Assembly (NCBI GenBank): GCA_041674805.1
Contig: JBAYVA010000002.1
Location: 83,234-147,233, forward strand
DNA: 64,000 bases
Source of the DNA: Candidatus Magasanikiibacteriota bacterium
GTDB lineage: Bacteria > Patescibacteriota > Patescibacteriia > Magasanikbacterales > UBA922
Reading direction: 5' to 3'
Position numbers and translations under genes: made by a program. This document shows positions 3,954 to 64,000 of the stretch, in pieces; position 1 is the first letter of the stretch; each line of letters begins with the position of its first letter. Below the pieces are notes generated by a model that saw only the letters and a program-made list of their open reading frames with translations, was not told where the DNA came from and did not search any database.

Positions 3954-6900
3954 TTATTTAGAAATAAATTTTTTAATCAATTTTTTTATTTTTGAAAAAA
4001 TATTTTCTCCATTACTTTTCAAAAAAAGTCCAAACAAAATAGCAGTAAAACCACCAGCTGTAGCTGTTAAATATTTTTCAACAATATCCGCGTTGTCTTG
4101 CTCTTTGGCTTTTTCTTTTTTTGTTACCAAATCTTCACTAACACCTGTTTTAATAATATCATTTTGATCACGTGGCAACAATTGATATTCTGTTTTTGTT
4201 TGATGAAGTAGTCCAGTAATACTTACTAAATTACCTTCTTCAAATATATCTTTTTTTATACCAGCTCCTCTCTTAAAATATACTTTTATTTCCTCAGTTC
4301 CATCGTCTACATACATATAAGAACTTTTTATTTCTGTAATTTCACCACTTACCAAAATAAGACTACCTTCATATTGTTCCCCCACATCTTCTAATTCCAA
4401 GACTCTACCAATTGGTAATTCACTATGTCCCAATTTTTTTATATCATTTTTTTCTTTTAATTTTATTCTAGTTTCACCAGAAGTTTCTGTAATTTCTCCC
4501 ATAACTTCTATTTTGTCTCCCCTTTTTAAATCTGGAAAATCTTTACTAAACATATAAATTTGTACACCAGCATTTTCAGAAACTATATAAAAAATTTGTG
4601 TACCCATTATACCTGGTTCTACTGCTACTGTACCTGTCACACTAATCATATCACCCAAATCTTCATCACGTATTTTTTCTAAACTAGTGTTTATAACTGC
4701 TTTCACTGAATTACTCTTACTTTTTACTATTTTAACGGATTTTACTTCTGTTATTTCTTCTACAAAATTTACCTCACCAGGGCTAATAATTTTATTCCAA
4801 ATCCAGTTACCTTCACTATTACGAACATAAGAGGCTCCTTCTATTACATCATCAAATCTTACTTCCATTATAATAGTTCCATCAGGATACAAAAGACGCA
4901 CAGAATCACTAGTGTTATTCAAAGCCAACTTTGTATCTTGGCGACCAAAGACTTTATATTCTTTAGCTTTTATCAAAGTATTAGCTCCTACAGTATAAGC
5001 TTTTGATCCACCTTCTTCATCATCAATTTTTAAACCCGAAATATCAACATCTTCTTCTGTAGGATTGTGAATTTCAATAAATTCAGTAGTATCTGAACCT
5101 ACTGGATTTGGCAAAATCTCTGAAATGTACAAAACAGATATATCACTTGTTCCAGCATAACCACCCACAAAATCTTGAGACAATTTTACACTTAAAACAA
5201 CATCCTTTTTACTTTCATTACTACCATCACTTACTGTCAAAGATACAGTATAAACTCCTTGTTGCAAAAATTTATGTTCTACACTCGCGCCATCTTCATC
5301 AGTCCCATCAGCAAAATCCCAATGAAATTTTAAATCTTTTCCTTCTGGACTAACAGTATCAGAAGCATCAAATTTCACCCATTCATTTACAGCTACTTCG
5401 GTATCTACATCAAGTGCAATAATTGGTGCTGCACTTTTACCTTCTACTATGTTTTTGCTTCCAGCAGTAATTTTACTACTCCATACCCAAGTAGCATCAT
5501 CTTGCCTCACATAACTAAAAGAATCACTAGCACTACCAGGATAACTTACACTATTTACGATTGCCCCATTTGGAGAAAATAATTTTACTTCATCTCCTCC
5601 TGTATTATTTAGAGCTATTTGTGTCATAGTTCTTTTGAAAACAATGAATTCATTTGCTTTCAATACACCTTGTTTTATTGTATATTTTTTCTTACTAGAA
5701 TCAGATAATTGCCAATCTTTCAAATCAATAGTTTCTGTACCTTTATTCCAAATTTCAATAAACTCATCATCACTATCACTACCTGGAGGATTTGGATAAA
5801 TTTCATTCAAAACTATGTTTGTTTGCAAAGAAAAAATTTCTTGTTTTTCCAAATCTTCAGCTTTTAAAGATAAAACATTTTTTTGTCCCCTAGTAATAGT
5901 ATCTGTAATTATAAAATCATAATAATCATTATCAGCATCTTGTCCATCTGTTTTTCTTATCAACGAATATGGATCACTTGCCACAGCAGCATTATCATAA
6001 GTATTACCATCATCCCAATTGCCATAAGTAACTTTATCTATTTCTTTTTTACTAGGATCTAATAATAACAAAATATCACCAGCATTATTGAGACTTCCTT
6101 TTGGTTCCTCAATTACAAAAAAACCTTTAGGCAAAATAGTCCCTGTCAAAATCGTAATTGTTTCACTACCATCTTCCAAAGACCAATCATTTAAATCAAT
6201 AATTTCTGAAGTGTTGTTATATATTTCTACGAATTCTTTTTCTCCATCACTAGGATCAGAAACCAACTCGTTTATGACCAAATCTCGTGCATTATAATTT
6301 TTTGTTGTTACTTCAGAACTAGAAGACGAACCTCCACCAGAACTAGAAACTGGAATATTTTTAATAATATTGACTTCACCTGGCGTTGGTTCTGTGGTAA
6401 TAGAAAAATCATTTTTATTATTTCCCGTGTTTTGACCATCCACGATTCTCGCCACAGAATAAGGATCACTGTGTGCAGGAGCGTTGTCTGAAATATCTTC
6501 ATCAAAAAAATCTATCCAATCACCAAAACGCACTGTGTCTATCAAATTACCAGAATTATCATACAAAAAAATACCATCACCATCATTGTTCAATTTACTA
6601 GACAAAATATTTACTCGCAAAAAACTTTTTGTTTCCAAAATATTATCCAAAACCAAAATTTTTTTTGTGCTACTACTACTTTTGTCACCTTCGTGCACTT
6701 CCCAATCTTTCAAATCAATAGTAGAGGTAGAATTATTATATATTTCTACCCATTCATTTTCACCAGCCACAGGATCACTTACAAATTCATTAATAACTAT
6801 TTCATAATTAGGAATAGTATTTGTCGTGGTAGTAGTACTTTCAAAATTTTCTACTATACTAAAGTTAAAAATGTCACTTGCAAAATCATTTTTATCATCT

Positions 6901-13468: not shown

Positions 13469-13909
13469 TTAGAATATAAGTTTGTAAGTAAAACCTTCAT
13501 TCCATTGAGGGTTATTCCATTTCATAAAACCTACTTTTTCACACAGTTTTTGCATAGGATAGTTTTCAAAAGATGTTTCAGTAACAATCCCTATAGCTCC
13601 TCTATTTTTTGAATGTTCAATACATTTATCAATCAAACATTGTCCCATTCCAAATTTTTGAAACATTGAATCAACTAGTATCTCGCGAATAAAAAAGAAA
13701 TTATCTTCCCACCAATCTCTATCAATAGAACAAAAAGCCACAAATTTATCATTTTTTTTAGCCAATAAATATAAACTATCTTTTAGAACAAAATTTTTCT
13801 TGAGTAATTTAATTGTGCTTTTATCAAATATATAATTAAAAGATTTTTTACCCTCTAAAAGTTCAATTTCTTTTTCATTCTTTATTTCAGAAATAATAAT
13901 ATCATCCAT
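13469..13909 (-). CDS. GNAT-family N-acetyltransferase
   Basis: 146 aa. The acetyl-CoA loop-like QKFGMGQCLIDKCIEHSK and overall size fit GNAT. Confidence 0.65.
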   Translation of the reverse strand: MDDIIISEIKNEKEIELLEGKKSFNYIFDKSTIKLLKKNFVLKDSLYLLAKKNDKFVAFCSIDRDWWEDNFFFIREILVDSMFQKFGMGQCLIDKCIEHSKNRGAIGIVTETSFENYPMQKLCEKVGFMKWNNPQWNEGFTYKLIF

Positions 13910-14122
13910 AAAATAAAAATAATTTTATTTAATTTTCAAATATAATATTGAATTTTAGATGATGTAATCTTTTTTATTACTTTGGAAAATAATTTTTTCT
14001 AGTTTTTAGCAAATTGAATTTAATTACAAGATAATTAATCATTTCAAATCTAAAAAAAATATCAACTAAATTATTATAAACAAAACAAAAAACAAATTAA
14101 TAATTTTATTTTATAAATAAAA

Positions 14123-15250
14123 TTATTTTTTAATAGGCATAACGATATACAAGTAATTGTCTTTTTCTTTTGGTCTAAAAATACAAGGAGCATCAGCACT
14201 ATTTACACCAAATTCAATGTTTTCACCTTCCATGTGTGCTAAACCATCCAACACATAGCTGTGGTTTAATAAAATGGAATTTTCTTCACCAATTACTTCA
14301 GCATCAACTTCAGAAGTATGTTCTCCAGCTTGAGTACTGGAAGAAGAAACTCCTACATTTTTTTTGCTTGGACTAAGCTCAAAAGAAACAGCATTGATAC
14401 CACCTGACGTAAACAAACTCGCTGCTTTGATTTTGTTGACCATAACACTTAGCGGAAAAGCAGCTGTTGTTTTAAAATTGTTTGGAATAATTTGTGTATA
14501 ATCTGGATAACGGCCTTCAATCAAACGACTAGTCATTTCAAAATTTCCATAACGAATAGCTATTTGATTATCACTTACCCAAACACGAACAATATCTTCA
14601 CCGCCATGACTTTTGGCAATTGTCAAAAGACGATTTATTTCATAAGCTACGCGTGCTGGTACAATACAGTGCACATTTTGAATTTCACCTTGTTTAATTT
14701 TTATTTTAGCTTCTGCCAAACGATAAGAATCTGTTGCTGCTAATACTAATCCATCATATTTTTCTGAAAAAAATGAAAAATAAATACCTGAAAATTCTGG
14801 TCTTACTTCGTTTTTGGAAACAGCTATAATAACTTTGCCAATAGCTTCTTTCAAATCATCAACTTGAACAACATAAGAATTTTTTTCTTCCACTTCTGGT
14901 AAAATTGGATAATCTTCATCTGTTGATCCTTTGATTTTAGTGCTAGAATTACCTGAAGTTATGATTAATTCATTGCCTTTTTGGTCTATTTCTACTTGTT
15001 CGCTTGTCAATAACTTAACATAATCTGCCAAAGTTTTTGCTGGAACTGTAAAATTTCCAGTAGTTTCTACTTTGGCTCTAATTTGTGTTTTTACTGCAAT
15101 TTCTAAGTTAGTACTGCTAATTTCAATACCTGAATCATTGGCTTTGATAAGTACGTTACTCAAAATTGGTAAGTTTGTATGTTTACTAGCTAAGGAACTC
15201 ACAAGACTCAAGGAATATTCTAAGTTTTCTTTTGTACATGTGAATTTCAT
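14123..15250 (-). CDS. dnaN: DNA polymerase III beta sliding clamp
   Basis: 375 aa. N-terminal MKFTCTKENL..L..V....S.....PILSNVLI, a three-domain length, and position immediately downstream of dnaA. Confidence 0.9.
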   Translation of the reverse strand: MKFTCTKENLEYSLSLVSSLASKHTNLPILSNVLIKANDSGIEISSTNLEIAVKTQIRAKVETTGNFTVPAKTLADYVKLLTSEQVEIDQKGNELIITSGNSSTKIKGSTDEDYPILPEVEEKNSYVVQVDDLKEAIGKVIIAVSKNEVRPEFSGIYFSFFSEKYDGLVLAATDSYRLAEAKIKIKQGEIQNVHCIVPARVAYEINRLLTIAKSHGGEDIVRVWVSDNQIAIRYGNFEMTSRLIEGRYPDYTQIIPNNFKTTAAFPLSVMVNKIKAASLFTSGGINAVSFELSPSKKNVGVSSSSTQAGEHTSEVDAEVIGEENSILLNHSYVLDGLAHMEGENIEFGVNSADAPCIFRPKEKDNYLYIVMPIKK

Positions 15251-15764
15251 ATGTTTGTTGTTTTATTAGTATATATATATTTATATAACTAGTAATATAT
15301 AATAAGGCCTGTGTGTAAAGTGCGAAAGTCGTTTTTTTGTTTTGGTTGACTTATTTTTTTGTGTGGACTTCTGCGCTTAAACTGTGTTTTTAAATGTGGT
15401 ATTTCTGGTGATAACTTTTTTTTAATTTTTTTCCTGTTGATGAACTGTTGATTTGTGGATAGATTATGAACAGTCTTTTTTTAGTTATCAACTTTTTTGT
15501 TATCGAGAATTTTTTTTGTGAATTGTTTGTTATTAACTTTTTTTAAATATTATTTTTAAAGGAATAATTTTTATTAGTTTTTGTTTGTCTTGTCAGAACT
15601 CTTAGTTTGGAGTTGATAGAATGAATCTAATAAAAATATAATTTTTTGTTTGCTAATAAAACTTCTCTGTTTTTTTGTTGAGAAATTTTTCAAAAATTAT
15701 AATGATTTACAATTTTTGAAAAATCCCTCATCTTTTTTTTAAAAAGATTTTTGGGATTATTTTT
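15251..15764. other. dnaA-dnaN intergenic region with DnaA-box-like sites (candidate second oriC module)
   Basis: 514-bp ORF-free AT-rich spacer containing tgtggatag (15454-15462, 1 mismatch), tgtggactt (15362-15370), several TTATC(A/G)A variants, and the 12-mer attatgaacagt shared with the region upstream of dnaA. Confidence 0.5.
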
Positions 15765-17150
15765 TTAAACAGCGTTGGAATATAATCTTTGTTTTATCAT
15801 TTCCAAATCTTGTTTGAGCTTTAAGTCGTTGTCTATACTTTGTAATATTTTACTGTGTGCATGCATAGCTGTAGTATGATCTCTACCACCTAGTTCATCA
15901 CCTATATTTGGATAAGAAAGTTTCAACTCTTCTCTTAGCAAATACATGATAATTTGACGTGGAAAAGCTAATTTTTTTTCACGACTTTTGCCGAGTACAT
16001 CATCGATAGAGATATCAAAATAACCAGCTACGACATTTATTATTTCACGAGGAGTTAAAGAACGTTTCATACTTTGTTCTTCAAAACTAGATAATACTTG
16101 TTTAATAGTTTCTTCAGTTGCTTCAATATTTTTTAGTTCGTGATAAGCAATAATTTTGTTGAGAGCGCCTTCTAATTCACGAATATTATTTTTAACATTT
16201 GTCGCAATAAATTGGATAAGTTTTCCTTCAATTTTGAAATCTTTTTCCTGAGCTTTTCTTTGTAGAATAGCTAAACGAGTTTCTAAGTCAGGAGGAGAAA
16301 TATCAGCAATCATACCCCATTCAAATCTACTGCGTAAGCGATCTTCTAAAGCAGGTATGGCTTTTGGTGGTCTATCACTTGTTAAAACAACTTGTTTACC
16401 TTGTTGGTGTAATTCGTTGAAAGTGTGAAAAAATTCTTCTTGTGTTTGTTCTTTGCCACCAATAAATTGAATATCATCAATCAAAAGTAAATCAACATTT
16501 CTATATCTATCTTTGAATTCTTTGGCTCTACCTTCTTTTACAGAAGAAACAAATTCATTGGTAAATTTTTCAGAACTAACGTATAAAATTTTTGTTTGAG
16601 GATTGGCCTCAAGCATAGTATGGCCAATCGCTTGTATAAGATGAGTTTTTCCCAAACCTACTCCTCCATAAATGAATAAAGGGTTGTAAGAATCTCCAGG
16701 ACGACGAGCTACGGCTTGAGCTGCAGCATGAGCAAGTTCATTACCTTTACCTACGACAAAAGTATCAAAAGTATATTTTGGATTCAAACCAAATTGCTGA
16801 ACCAAAGTATTTTTTCTTTGGTTATTGTATAAAGGGTTTGTAATAGTAGAAATTTGTGGTAACTTCTCTGACATTTTACATTCAGATTCTTTGATATTTT
16901 TTATATTTTCTACTATATAATCTACTTTTTTGATAGGTTTGCCTGTCACTCTTTCTAAGATCTTGATTATTTGAGAGTGATGCTTCTTTTCTAACCAACT
17001 CTTTGTAAAGGAGTTAGGAACACAAATATTCACTAATCCTTCTTCATAATTTGCTATTCCTGTGTTTTTGAACCATGTCGTAAATTGAGCTTTGGATAAA
17101 CTTAGCTCAAATTCGGCCAAAACAGCTTGCCAGATTTCGTGAGTGGTCAT
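15765..17150 (-). CDS. dnaA: Chromosomal replication initiator DnaA
   Basis: 461 aa. Walker A GGVGLGKTHL, LLIDDIQF, sensor and box VII regions, C-terminal DNA-binding helix-turn-helix (..HTTAMHA..). Confidence 0.95.
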   Translation of the reverse strand: MTTHEIWQAVLAEFELSLSKAQFTTWFKNTGIANYEEGLVNICVPNSFTKSWLEKKHHSQIIKILERVTGKPIKKVDYIVENIKNIKESECKMSEKLPQISTITNPLYNNQRKNTLVQQFGLNPKYTFDTFVVGKGNELAHAAAQAVARRPGDSYNPLFIYGGVGLGKTHLIQAIGHTMLEANPQTKILYVSSEKFTNEFVSSVKEGRAKEFKDRYRNVDLLLIDDIQFIGGKEQTQEEFFHTFNELHQQGKQVVLTSDRPPKAIPALEDRLRSRFEWGMIADISPPDLETRLAILQRKAQEKDFKIEGKLIQFIATNVKNNIRELEGALNKIIAYHELKNIEATEETIKQVLSSFEEQSMKRSLTPREIINVVAGYFDISIDDVLGKSREKKLAFPRQIIMYLLREELKLSYPNIGDELGGRDHTTAMHAHSKILQSIDNDLKLKQDLEMIKQRLYSNAV

Positions 17151-17239
17151 AGATAAAGTCTTTATTTTTATGTTTTTTCATTTTATCACAGTTTGCTAAT
17201 TTAAAAAATCCTCTAAATTAAGCTAAAAGTGCATAAAGT

Positions 17240-17268
17240 TGTGGACAACTTGTGGATTCTGTGGATAA
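17240..17268. promoter_or_regulatory. Cluster of three adjacent DnaA boxes upstream of dnaA (oriC / dnaA autoregulation)
   Basis: tgtggacaa (17240-17248), tgtggattc (17251-17259) and a perfect tgtggataa (17260-17268). A further ggtggataa lies at 17492-17500. Confidence 0.75.
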
Positions 17269-17670
17269 TTTGGCTAAAATACTTTATATTTTTTATTAAA
17301 AAATTATGAACAGTTTGGAGATTTTTACTTTTTTTATTTTAGAAAAATAGATTTTTTGTTAATAGCGTTTTTTTGCTAATTTTAGTAAAAAATGAATAAA
17401 AATAGTTGATTGCTTTATTATAATAACACATCCTTCACTCGTAGCAAAAACAAAGGTCAGAAATGTTTTTTTACCAATGTTTTTGTCTAAAGGTGGATAA
17501 TTACTACGAAATAATACAATTTATACCCTATTTTTGATTTTATTAGGATTTGTAGATTCATTAATTTTGATTAATGTGGTCAATTTATTAGATTTTTGTG
17601 TTTTTTGAAGTTGAAAATTTTTTTTATGTAAGTTAGTTTTTCTTATTATTGTCTAAGTTTTTATCAATAC

Positions 17671-17699
17671 TTGACAAAACTTTAAATTTTTTGTATTAT
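17671..17699 (+). promoter_or_regulatory. Promoter of rpmH
   Basis: TTGACA (17671-17676), 17-nt spacer, TATTAT (17694-17699), 35 nt upstream of the rpmH ATG. Confidence 0.65.
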
Positions 17700-17733
17700 T
17701 TAGCTACATTATTTAGTTTTGAACTTATAAGTT

Positions 17734-17913
17734 ATGGCAACAAAAAGAACATATCAGCCAAAAAAACGTAAAAGAGCAAAGACCCATGGTTTTCTAGAAA
17801 GAATGAAAACAAAAGATGGTCGTAAAGTTCTTAAGGCACGTCGTGATAAAGGCAGAAAAAAACTTACAGTAAGTGAAGAAAGAACAGGTAAAAGAACAAG
17901 AAAAACACGTTAA
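17734..17913 (+). CDS. rpmH: 50S ribosomal protein L34 with a basic C-terminal extension
   Basis: Not in the ORF track (59 aa). Translation is [59 protein letters not shown]. The first 44 aa are canonical L34, and the gene sits in the classic rpmH-rnpA position. Confidence 0.9.
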
Positions 17914-17978
17914 TTTGTCTGTTTTTAATCTAATAACCATTACTACCTCGTTTTTACGAGGTTTTTGTGTTATAATAT

Positions 17979-18362
17979 TTGTATATGTTAGCCAAAGAAT
18001 TTAGATTAAGAGGTAAAAAAGAATGGGAAGTTTTGTTTGCAGAAGGTAACTTTGCTTCGGCAAATTTTTTGACGGTCAAATTTTGGAAGATAGAAGTAAA
18101 TAAATTTCCTCGTAGAAAGTTTCAAGTATCAGATCTTAAGATAGGCTTTAGTGTTGGTTTAAAAATAAGTAAAAGTGCTGTAAAACGTAATAGTGTTAAA
18201 AGAAAAATGAGTGAAGTTGTGAGATTGTTATTAAAAGACAATAAAATTAAATCAGGTTATTTGATTGGATTCTTGGCTAAAAATAATATTTTAGATGTTG
18301 ATTACTCACAAATAGAAGCAGATATTATTAATTGTCTGAAAAAATCTAAACTATTAATCTAA
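17979..18362 (+). CDS. rnpA: RNase P protein component
   Basis: 127 aa. RNR-like motif SAVKRNSVKRKMSEVVR, and position directly after rpmH. Confidence 0.8.
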   Translation: MYMLAKEFRLRGKKEWEVLFAEGNFASANFLTVKFWKIEVNKFPRRKFQVSDLKIGFSVGLKISKSAVKRNSVKRKMSEVVRLLLKDNKIKSGYLIGFLAKNNILDVDYSQIEADIINCLKKSKLLI

Positions 18363-21508: not shown

Positions 21509-21646
21509 ATGAAAGAATTTCTTGAGACCCTCATCGGCATTCTCGCTTCCCTTTTTTGGGGAGCGGTGTTCGCCGTTTTCCTCTTTGATGAGGAAGCGGC
21601 GGCGACCTTCCTGCGAGGGGAGGTCAAATATGTCACGGGGGTTTGA
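21509..21646 (+). CDS. 45-aa single-TM peptide, GC3-rich (candidate foreign mini-gene)
   Basis: Not in the ORF track. GGAGGTG Shine-Dalgarno 5 nt upstream of the ATG. Translation is MKEFLETLIGILASLFWGAVFAVFLFDEEAAATFLRGEVKYVTGV. Codons end mostly in G/C, unlike surrounding genes. Confidence 0.4.
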   Translation: MKEFLETLIGILASLFWGAVFAVFLFDEEAAATFLRGEVKYVTGV

Positions 21647-21696
21647 AAAGGAGGGCGGTCCGGGCGTACGTGCGCGGACCAAACTCATAAATTAAG

Positions 21697-21729
21697 ACCG
21701 TTTTTCTTTATTGAAAGACGGTTTTTTTT
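21697..21729 (+). terminator. Rho-independent terminator after the 45-aa mini-gene
   Basis: Stem accgtttttc / gaaagacggt (one mismatch), loop tttatt, then a T8 run. Confidence 0.6.
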
Positions 21730-21784
21730 GACAGTTCATTTTTTTGTAGTAGTTTTTAAATATCTTCCACGGAAGGAGGTGGTT

Positions 21785-21976
21785 GTGGGTGGTGAGAGCC
21801 CCTTTCATACGCTGATCCAGTGTCCAAACTGTAGGCGTTATACGGACTCAAGAGAGTTCGAAACGCTGACAAAAGATGGGGGAGAGTACAAAAAGTGCCC
21901 ATATTGTGGGTGGTCACATCTTGTGTCTATGCCCTCGGCGTACTTTAAGTATAGGAGGGACGATGGAATTAATTAG
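21785..21976 (+). CDS. 63-aa zinc-ribbon protein (CPNC..x21..CPYC), GC3-rich
   Basis: GTG start 6 nt after AGGAGG (21773-21778). Translation is VGGESPFHTLIQCPNCRRYTDSREFETLTKDGGEYKKCPYCGWSHLVSMPSAYFKYRRDDGIN. The track ORF 21728-21976 has an implausible AT-rich N-terminal extension from TTG. Confidence 0.5.
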   Translation: MGGESPFHTLIQCPNCRRYTDSREFETLTKDGGEYKKCPYCGWSHLVSMPSAYFKYRRDDGIN

Positions 21977-21996
21977 GTAAGGGGTGGGGAAGGTGG

Positions 21997-22034
21997 ATGC
22001 GCGCGACTTCTACGAAAGTGGTTGTCGTGCGCGT
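21997..22034 (+). other. GC-rich 11-bp stem-loop downstream of the zinc-ribbon gene
   Basis: atgcgcgcgac (21997-22007) pairs with gtcgtgcgcgt (22024-22034, including two G:U pairs) around a 16-nt loop. No T-run follows directly. Confidence 0.55.
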
Positions 22035-40022: not shown

Positions 40023-40079
40023 TTTTTGACAAAATCATATTTTGTTGATAATATGTTTTTACTTTATTTGAAGTAAAAA

Positions 40080-40153: not shown

Positions 40154-40170
40154 CAATTAAATAAAGCAAA

Positions 40171-40244
40171 GGGCCGTTTCCCGATTCATCGGGAGGCTAG
40201 AGTGCCCGGACGGGAGGTCGCTGGTTCGAATCCAGTAAGGTCCA
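40171..40244 (+). ncRNA. tRNA-Ala-like RNA lacking a canonical anticodon arm
   Basis: 74 nt. Acceptor GGGCCGT / AAGGTCC with G3:U70 (one G:A mismatch at 6:67) and discriminator A. The T-arm GCTGG-TTCGAAT-CCAGT is perfect. The interior CCCGATTCATCGGGAGGCTAGAGTGCCCGGACGGG gives no 5-bp stem with a 7-nt U33 loop. A terminator hairpin follows (about 40250-40280). Confidence 0.5.
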
Positions 40245-40327
40245 CAAAAAAACTTTCTATTTTATAGAGAGTTTTTTGTTTTTTGATTACATGTTATACT
40301 ATAAAAATAATATAATAATTGAAATAT

Positions 40328-41361: not shown

Positions 41362-41449
41362 CTAAAGGCTTTGACCTTAAAATTTACACAGTGTGGTTAG
41401 TTAAAACGTTTAGTAGGAAGAATAAATATATCGTAGTATTCAAACATAT

Positions 41450-63922: not shown

Positions 63923-63950
63923 AAAAAATAGACTTAGTAGTCTATTTTTT
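63923..63950. terminator. Bidirectional terminator
   Basis: Stem atagact / agtctat flanked by A- and T-runs. Confidence 0.65.
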
Positions 63951-63951
63951 G

Positions 63952-64000
63952 TACCGCGGGCGGGACTTGAACCCGCACGACATTGCTGCCAAGGGATTTT
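63952..64000 (-). tRNA. Type II (long variable arm) tRNA, probably tRNA-Leu; 3' portion only, truncated by the window edge
   Basis: Reverse complement ..AAAATCCCTTGGCAGCAATGTCGT GCGGG TTCAAGT CCCGC CCGCGGT A. It shows a T-arm, acceptor 3' strand, discriminator A and a variable-arm hairpin. The anticodon is not fully inside the window. Confidence 0.55.

Follow-up and report, generated by a model that had tools for sequence, protein, structure and literature searches.

Does a tRNA-like sequence that has kept the G3:U70 pair of an alanine acceptor and has lost its anticodon arm serve as a dedicated carrier of alanine, or is it a by-product of recombination among tRNA genes? This question is raised by a 74-nt element located downstream of tRNA-Ala(GGC) in a 64,000-nt stretch of contig JBAYVA010000002.1 (hereafter the window), which derives from a Candidatus Magasanikiibacteriota bacterium, has a GC content of about 30% and has close relatives annotated as Candidatus Magasanikbacteria or Patescibacteria. 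The original prediction proposed a chargeable, non-decoding alanine RNA under selection. Comparison with related loci, which are designated by L numbers below, makes a recombination by-product more likely than a dedicated alanine carrier. In the reading that we prefer, and to which we give an even chance, the element would be a disarmed tandem duplicate of the tRNA-Ala(GGC) gene that arose by recombination. It is best classed as an unusual tRNA gene remnant, whose arms were replaced by a palindrome and which is under some constraint. Such copies would arise through break-induced segmental duplication and gene conversion among tRNA genes, and the palindrome would be kept through sequence-specific recognition, self-correction or spread of the element rather than through a role in carrying alanine.

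Anatomy and expression of the tRNA-Ala-like element

The element (40171 to 40244, plus strand, as are all of its parts) has the order GGGCCGT TT CCCGATTCATCGGG A GGCTAGAGTG CCCGGACGGG AGGTC GCTGG TTCGAAT CCAGT AAGGTCC A. The acceptor 5' strand GGGCCGT (40171 to 40177), in which G3 pairs with U70 and G6 faces A67, is followed by a long palindrome, CCCGATTCATCGGG (40180 to 40193), in place of the 5' half of the D-arm (tRNA positions 10-17). Next comes AGGCTAGAGTG (40194 to 40204), the retained 3' half of the D-loop and D-stem (G18 G19 to G26), which matches GGCTAGAGCG of the neighboring tRNA at nine of ten bases. A short palindrome, CCCGGACGGG (40205 to 40214), stands in place of the 17-nt anticodon arm and leads into the variable loop AGGTC (40215 to 40219), which is the same as in the neighboring tRNA, the T-arm GCTGG TTCGAAT CCAGT (40220 to 40236), and the acceptor 3' strand AAGGTCC with the discriminator A73 (40237 to 40244); CCA is not encoded. 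Relative to the neighboring tRNA, positions 1-9 (including U8), the segment GGCTAGAG(T)G from G18-G19 of the D-loop to G26, AGGTC, the T-arm and the 3' strand are kept, and positions 10-17 and the 17-nt anticodon arm are replaced by CCCGATTCATCGGGA and CCCGGACGGG, respectively. The two replacements are the long form (CCCGA-N4-TCGGG) and the short form (CCCG-NN-CGGG) of one GC-rich, lineage-specific palindrome. The T-stem is perfect over 5 bp with the loop TTCGAAT, as had been predicted. The prediction of an intact alanine-type acceptor was right with respect to G3:U70 and the discriminator A and wrong with respect to the stem, which forms six of seven pairs because of the G6/A67 mismatch in GGGCCGT/AAGGTCC (also flagged by cmscan). 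The identity features of an alanyl-tRNA synthetase (AlaRS) minihelix, namely G3:U70, A73 and G2:C71, are present in the window element and in all three homologues described below.

The absence of an anticodon arm, and with it the non-decoding nature of the element, was borne out for the window copy and for each of the three homologues. The tRNA finders proposed as a check were represented by ARAGORN and the Rfam covariance model, and neither called a cloverleaf: ARAGORN reported no tRNA for the element on the plus strand at default settings, with thresholds lowered to 70% and 50% (ps70, ps50) or in intron mode, and the Rfam tRNA model (RF00005) scored 18.2 bits, against a gathering score of 29, by aligning only the acceptor and the T-arm. 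A true, decoding tRNA whose arms are unusual or carry small removable insertions would fit the total length of 74 nt and the canonical acceptor, T-arm and variable loop. However, no register offers a 7-nt loop with U33, although all of them were also tried by hand, and removal of both palindromes leaves 49 nt and no anticodon. A tRNA with a hidden anticodon is rejected on the same grounds, and the decoding reading as a whole is effectively refuted. ARAGORN in tmRNA (transfer-messenger RNA) mode found no tmRNA, and the Rfam model of permuted tmRNA gave only a 9.8-bit chance match. Both forms of tmRNA are rejected, as the element measures 74 nt, lies between a spacer and a terminator, and has neither an mRNA-like domain nor a tag open reading frame (ORF); other Rfam families yielded sub-threshold chance matches only. 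The nested CCCG/CGGG helices that had been proposed for the interior are possible because it holds two copies of one palindrome, but this fold (-19.9 kcal/mol) is less stable than a fold with two hairpins (-22.5 kcal/mol) and than the minimum free energy structure (-33.2 kcal/mol).

The element is part of a transcription unit whose layout agrees with the original prediction. A sigma-70-type promoter of the tRNA-Ala operon, TTGACA-17-TAATAT with TG (40026 to 40054, plus strand), lies in a block that is also kept upstream of tRNA-Ala(GGC) in L003, L028, L014 and L006. The canonical tRNA-Ala(GGC) gene (40080 to 40153/4, plus strand) is called by ARAGORN and scores 64.3 bits with the Rfam tRNA model. 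An AT-rich spacer of 17 nt (40154 to 40170, plus strand) separates it from the tRNA-like copy; in the relatives this spacer measures 16-26 nt and differs in sequence (50-82% identity in short global alignments). Directly 3' of the element follows an intrinsic terminator (40245 to 40284, plus strand), an AT-rich hairpin with a T-run that folds with -12.3 kcal/mol over 40247-40277 and that the consensus terminator scan did not call because its stem is AT-rich. Where the element is missing, the canonical tRNA is followed immediately by the homologous terminator. The identical element sequence occurs in two independent assemblies from other samples (L001 and L002) and is therefore no assembly artefact. 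The position between the promoter and terminator of the tRNA-Ala operon and the retained minihelix, U8, G18G19 and variable loop lead us to expect transcription and processing. The element is probably transcribed within the operon, from which RNase P and 3' processing would release a tRNA-like RNA of 74 nt, unable to decode. Its alanylation appears possible in principle.

Outside the tRNA-Ala locus, the window holds dnaN, dnaA and rnpA (13469-18362), and the cumulative GC skew turns near 12-16 kb, so that it probably contains the replication origin. A GC-rich island between the genes for trigger factor and H+-pyrophosphatase (21558-22010) has no Rfam match even with permissive filters. At 63950-64000 (minus strand) lies the 3' part of a tRNA gene (T-arm GCGGG TTCAAGT CCCGC, acceptor CCGCGGT A), which is cut by the window end and called by no finder.

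Distribution and exchange of tRNA scaffolds

The syntenic locus in related genomes was anchored by the upstream TspO gene and the downstream transaldolase gene. Full-length homologues of the element stand between tRNA-Ala(GGC) and the terminator in L003 (5828-5902), L014 (5832-5906) and L042 (1491-1564, minus strand). A 5' fragment (element positions 1-30) precedes the tRNA in contigs of the L006 type and in L014. In L004, L005, L028 and L041 only the tRNA is present and the element is absent, with the TspO-tRNA-Ala synteny intact wherever the contig includes the TspO side. L028 lacks the element and yet forms a tight cluster with L003 and L014 (transaldolase identity at fourfold degenerate sites 0.76-0.77; 0.72-0.77 in the cluster). 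The presence of the element is patchy and incongruent with the gene phylogeny.

Two variants of the tRNA-Ala scaffold occur at this locus. Variant A (GGGCCTT .. ATGGG TTCAAGT CCCAT AAGGTCC) is the only one in the outgroups L004, L005, L028 and L041. Variant B has the form GGGCCGT .. GCTGG-loop-CCAGT ACGGTCC, with the T-loop TTCGAAT in L003 and L006, TTCAAGT in L014 and TTCAAAT in L042. In L003, L014 and L042, the functional tRNA is of variant B, and the disarmed copy has the A scaffold with the ancestral terminator. The window shows the reverse, a canonical tRNA of variant A and a disarmed copy on the B scaffold. This switch of scaffolds indicates that tandem copies exchange modules by recombination, and the T-arm and acceptor modules of tRNA and disarmed copy were exchanged between lineages. 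The T-stem GCTGG/CCAGT of the window element had been taken for a compensatory change under selection. It is the canonical tRNA-Ala(GGC) T-stem of L003, L006, L014 and L042; the whole T-arm is identical to that of L003 and L006, and the stem only is in common with L014 and L042. The argument for selection from the T-stem falls, since recombination has brought in a canonical T-arm allele. Also the tRNA itself appears to have moved. The canonical tRNA-Ala(GGC) genes of L014 (5735-5808) and L042 (1580-1653) are identical at 72 of 73 positions, at a fourfold-site identity of only 0.43 in the transaldolase gene, and those of the close pair L003/L014 differ at 8 of 74 positions. The near-identity between L014 and L042 despite this divergence indicates horizontal exchange, or gene conversion, of the tRNA-Ala locus.

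The intergenic place of tRNA-Ala also receives other sequences. About 400 nt upstream of the transaldolase gene in L031 and L036-L040, and likewise in L029 and L030, large GC-rich inserts with long inverted repeats (for example CCGCCACCTGCC..GGCAGTGGCGG around GGGGTT/AACCCC arms) occupy the position that tRNA-Ala has elsewhere. These inserts may represent an unrecognised structured RNA or a non-autonomous mobile element. Genes for Y1 transposases of the IS200/IS605 type (PF01797) adjoin the TspO-tRNA-Ala locus in L019 (600-1160) and, upstream of TspO, in L021-L023. In L019, the insertion sequence lies directly 3' of the tRNA-Ala promoter and the tRNA is gone.

The palindrome in other tRNA copies and the GIY-YIG cassette

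In sister genomes, partial tRNA-Gly(GCC) and tRNA-Met copies have the same arms overwritten by this palindrome. The tRNA-Gly(GCC)-like copies of L003, L014 and L042 carry CCCGTCCGGG where the anticodon arm would be, and CCCGTCCGGG is the reverse complement of CCCGGACGGG in the alanine copy; likewise, the true anticodon arms of tRNA-Gly(GCC) and tRNA-Ala(GGC) are, as DNA, almost reverse complementary to each other. Tandem units that consist of tRNA-Met positions 1-10 and TCCCGATCAATCGGGA (TCCCGA-N4-TCGGGA) precede the real tRNA-Met in L003 and L006, and one unit in L006 runs on into positions 25-32. Most of the palindrome-overwritten copies are truncated and unable to form a minihelix. In L028, the long palindrome is free-standing. 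The window contains two CCCG..CGGG palindromes, both inside the element, where about 0.1 would be expected by chance in 64 kb (an estimate from base composition). In a census of 145 kb of low-GC loci, 18 of 21 CCCG-N2-9-CGGG palindromes lie inside tRNA-derived copies, with the qualification that these loci were themselves chosen around tRNA genes. The palindrome does not take the form of many copies dispersed through one genome: two occur in the 64-kb window, and those of the relatives cluster at tRNA-derived sequences.

The tRNA-Met units (L003 7540-7640, minus strand; L006 2000-2160) decay with distance from the real tRNA-Met, and the window has only an AT-rich relic of such a unit, ATATCGTAGTATTCAAACAT (41430-41449). 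A tRNA-Gly(GCC) pseudo-copy in L031 (2787-2860) carries a double hairpin of 30 nt (TCAGCCAAAGGCTGA CCAGCCTCTGGCTGG) between U17 and G18, so different hairpins reach the same D-loop position; the remainder of this copy has decayed to AT-rich sequence. A free-standing hairpin (TCCCGATTTATCGGGA in L028), which is followed by CAAACAGCT(T/C)CCCCCTCAAAC, occupies an orthologous intergenic site 3' of the tRNA-Ala terminator: L028 has it intact (834-847), L014 as a variant (6020-6036) and L042 in a decayed state (minus strand, some 130 nt 3' of the Ala-like element).

External sources of the palindrome were considered as well. Three element-specific patterns had no real match among viral contigs. The 17-mer palindrome alone gave 14 matches, about the number estimated by chance, and a viral origin is rejected; the sole low-GC viral match (L049) is inside a phage structural ORF. 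A metagenome scan with the 5' pattern returned 11 loci, nine of them chance matches in high-GC contigs, and the only real matches were L009 (identical to L006) and L014. The ends of IS200/IS605 elements are unsupported as a source, as their end hairpins are unlike CCCG..CGGG.

At the tRNA-Gly(GCC) locus, the palindrome accompanies a gene for a GIY-YIG protein. L003 (6930-7420, minus strand) and L014 (7760-8260, minus strand) share the order of a Gly-like copy of positions 1-62 with CCCGT(C/A)CGGG for the anticodon arm, a duplicated leader, the real tRNA-Gly, an ORF for an 88-aa GIY-YIG protein, a Gly-like copy of positions 8-76 with CCCGTCCGGG, and a terminator. L042 (1-345), whose contig starts inside the tRNA, has the 3' end of tRNA-Gly, the ORF and the downstream piece. 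The TAG stop codon of the ORF coincides with tRNA positions 8-10. Presence of the cassette, with its duplicated flanks, is polymorphic at this locus: it is found in L003, L014 and L042 and is absent in the window, L004, L005, L006 and L031. The tRNA cluster is inverted relative to the transaldolase gene in L003 and L014, where this is seen directly; for L042 the same orientation is deduced from the 3' end of tRNA-Gly. The upstream junction of the duplication in L003 and L014 immediately follows GGTTCGAATCC. A precedent for the proposed break-induced recombination is the free-standing GIY-YIG homing endonuclease SegB of phages T4 and T6. It cuts tRNA genes at a T-loop motif, RAWTSGAAC, the reverse complement of GTTCGAATC, and promotes both the homing of the tRNA region and a recombination-dependent amplification of segments that comprise tRNA plus segB (PMC2330249, PMC13096335). 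The 88-aa protein consists of a GIY-YIG domain alone (PF01541, 50-53 bits). Its best relatives in the PDB are UPF0213 and SLX1; it has no match among the homing endonucleases of PHROG or NCBIfam, where its homologue in L043 has weak matches only.

This distant homologue (57% identity) is encoded on an unrelated contig and is followed by TCCCGATGAAATCGGGA, AGGTC, a T-arm and an acceptor 3' strand. The 17-mer TCCCGATGAAATCGGGA is the exact reverse complement of the long palindrome of L003. As a Phe-type anticodon arm is another possible reading of this 17-mer, the link to the palindrome is only suggestive. The ORF in L043 is flanked by three integrase gene fragments and two tRNA 3' parts (1-1825 and 1950-2310), one of which reads TGCGG TTCGAAC CCGCA TAGCTCC A and the other of which is a degenerate copy. 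The locus resembles a hot spot of integration, with tRNA repeats of the att type. ARAGORN found no complete tRNA in the 4.2 kb of this locus.

Constraint on the element and its relation to known systems

How strongly the element is constrained was assessed from four full-length copies. Pairs were counted on a manual alignment, because MAFFT misaligned the 5' ends. Between genomes, the element interior is 0.84-0.93 identical in all pairs, as compared with 0.84-0.99 for the real tRNA, 0.50-0.82 for the spacer (short global alignments) and 0.43-0.72 for fourfold sites of the transaldolase gene. The motif GG(C/T)TAGA is conserved in all four homologues. None of the ten columns of the long-palindrome stem varies. 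Two columns of the short-palindrome stem do, both by C-to-T changes that preserve G-U pairing, and the loops vary. Both changes belong to L014, where wobble pairing in RNA or single-stranded DNA is kept and the palindrome in double-stranded DNA is broken. With invariant stems, the four sequences give no covariation signal either way. An uncompensated acceptor mismatch is found in three of the four elements (G6/A67 in the window, U1/C72 in L003, and A6/A67).

The contrast between interior and fourfold sites argues against neutral decay. An ordinary tRNA pseudogene that decays neutrally after tandem duplication would account for the lost cloverleaf, the acceptor-stem mismatches and the patchy presence. 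The element is indeed homologous to a functional tRNA and has lost the decoding structure. It does not decay at a synonymous or intergenic rate, however, and its arms were replaced by defined palindromes common to other tRNA copies rather than eroded by point mutations; truly decaying relics nearby are AT-rich. We disfavour this explanation as quite improbable. Random decay in relatives, which the original prediction had named as a refutation, is not seen. Its claim of selection rather than decay loses the argument from the T-stem and keeps a different basis in the identity of the interior.

Several observations weigh against the element being a mere by-product of recombination. At a divergence that nearly saturates synonymous sites, the interior has been conserved to the same degree as the real tRNA. 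G3:U70, A73, the T-loop, G18G19 and the length of 74-75 nt are kept in all four copies, and L042, alone among them, has a perfect acceptor stem. Other tRNA relics nearby (L031; 41430-41449 in the window) have decayed to AT-rich sequence and the element has not. The 88-aa protein is not a homing enzyme of the SegB or I-TevI type and is a minimal domain of the Slx1/UPF0213 type that lacks a DNA-binding domain; neither tblastn nor Pfam revealed a GIY-YIG ORF in the 64-kb window, the gene stands beside no tRNA-Ala-like copy, and the putative connection between nuclease and palindrome is drawn from gene context.

Much of this constraint would also be expected of a selected, chargeable, non-decoding alanine acceptor, which AlaRS would charge via G3:U70 and which an Ala-tRNA-dependent enzyme would use independently of translation. 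G3:U70, A73, G2:C71, the T-arm, the T-loop and G18G19 are invariant in all four copies, interior and length are conserved over near-saturated divergence, and the element lies within the tRNA-Ala transcription unit. On the other hand, only one of the four acceptor stems is free of an uncompensated mismatch, which in one case lies at 1:72, and close relatives, L028 for instance, lack the element. In the palindromes, the stem sequence is fixed rather than covarying and recurs in truncated tRNA-Met and tRNA-Gly copies without a minihelix, and the tRNA-like fold lies 5-13 kcal/mol above the minimum free energy structure. In a Pfam scan that covered 33 of the 47 window ORFs of at least 110 aa, left 8 ORFs unscanned and was supplemented by the listed genes of L001, the proteins recognised include DnaA, DnaN, RnpA, a class A penicillin-binding protein, an M23 peptidase, PolA, GatB and MiaA; Fem/MurM (FemAB), MprF, L/F-transferase, GIY-YIG and Y1 transposase domains are absent from this set. 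As it covers only 64 kb, the absence of an aminoacyl-tRNA transferase is weak evidence. A literature search for anticodon-less tRNA-like RNAs in Patescibacteria found nothing relevant. These data do not support a role as alanine carrier, which we regard as distinctly unlikely.

Alternatively, the interior may be a recognition or structural module, a protein-binding DNA palindrome or a structured RNA trailer, for which the tRNA scaffold is a mere carrier. Either the mobile element or the operon would make use of it, be it as a target of the GIY-YIG or some other protein or to aid processing or stability. In favour of such a module, the stem CCCGA/TCGGG does not change between four settings (Ala, Met, intergenic, and L043 beside the GIY-YIG homologue), whereas its loops do. 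The short palindrome has stayed the same 3' of the GIY-YIG ORF in three genomes, next to a D-arm remnant that is decaying. GIY-YIG enzymes of the Slx1 type, moreover, cut nucleic acids in a structure-specific manner (PMC1564403). This invariance across contexts points to sequence-specific recognition, self-correction of the palindrome or spread of an element rather than to a generic RNA helix. The nuclease would be tied to the palindrome by sequence context, however, its gene is missing from the window, both palindrome copies of the 64 kb lie within the element, and the C-to-T changes of L014 break the palindrome in double-stranded DNA. Such a module seems unlikely to us, less so than the carrier.

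A bolder proposal, which we hold to be similarly unlikely, would combine these elements. In one Magasanikbacteria clade, CCCG..CGGG would systematically overwrite the D- and anticodon arms of duplicated tRNA-Ala, tRNA-Gly and tRNA-Met genes and create constrained anticodon-less mimics, either as RNA or DNA partners of a mobile minimal Slx1-type GIY-YIG nuclease or, in the case of the full-length alanine copy, as an alanine-charged non-decoding RNA.

If the recombination reading holds, the element is an instructive case rather than a new RNA class, showing how duplication, module swapping and palindrome insertion reshape tRNA loci of ultra-small bacteria. It also cautions that an intact G3:U70 minihelix beside a tRNA is no evidence for a dedicated carrier. 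Unusual is the clean replacement of the same arms in three tRNA families by one palindrome, with a result that is conserved over near-saturated divergence. If this reflected recognition by the minimal GIY-YIG nuclease, a function and a target would be at hand for the large, uncharacterised bacterial family of UPF0213/Slx1-like proteins, and a true partnership of nuclease and palindrome would constitute a previously undescribed tRNA-gene-targeting element. If the RNA were charged, it would be, to our knowledge, the first chromosomal anticodon-less alanine acceptor besides tmRNA.

Among known systems, SegB resembles the present case in that a GIY-YIG gene is embedded among tRNA genes. Its cleavage motif corresponds to the T-loop, and it drives co-conversion and a tandem amplification of tRNA segments that depends on recombination; in L003 and L014, GGTTCGAATCC immediately precedes the duplication junction. 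It differs in that here a minimal Slx1/UPF0213-type domain of 88 aa without a DNA-binding domain is encoded on a bacterial chromosome, at the tRNA-Gly locus of sister genomes and not beside the alanine element; we know of no palindrome replacement linked to SegB. Mobile GC-rich palindromes of AT-rich genomes comprise the GC clusters of yeast mitochondria, the Rickettsia palindromic elements and the repetitive extragenic palindromic (REP) elements. Shared with them are short GC-rich hairpin modules in a genome of about 30% GC, which occur in structural RNA genes and intergenic regions and flip their orientation. In contrast, the copy number here is very low (two in the window, both in the element), the copies are nearly confined to tRNA-derived sequences (at loci chosen around tRNA genes), and arms were replaced rather than simply interrupted by an insertion.

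With AlaRS minihelices and microhelices and with the tRNA-like domain of tmRNA, the element shares an acceptor/T-arm helix with G3:U70 and A73 and the lack of an anticodon, which makes alanylation conceivable. In tmRNA, a tRNA-like domain is joined to an mRNA-like domain with a tag reading frame, at a total length of about 300-400 nt. The element, in contrast, measures 74 nt, has no mRNA-like domain or tag ORF, and its helix is interrupted at 6:67. Non-proteinogenic tRNAs that serve cell-wall synthesis include tRNA-Gly isoacceptors of Staphylococcus and the tRNA-Ala used by FemX of Weissella. Like these, the element is an extra tRNA-type gene beside a normal isoacceptor and conceivably a non-translational carrier; unlike it, they are complete cloverleafs with anticodons, and no Fem-type gene is among the scanned window ORFs. 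The closest likeness in origin is to tRNA pseudogenes and partial duplicates: the element derives from an adjacent tRNA gene, is non-decoding and patchy among close relatives, and its truncated siblings adjoin real tRNA genes. It departs from them in that two arms were cleanly swapped for one palindrome with the total length preserved, and in an interior that is conserved like a functional tRNA over near-saturated divergence.

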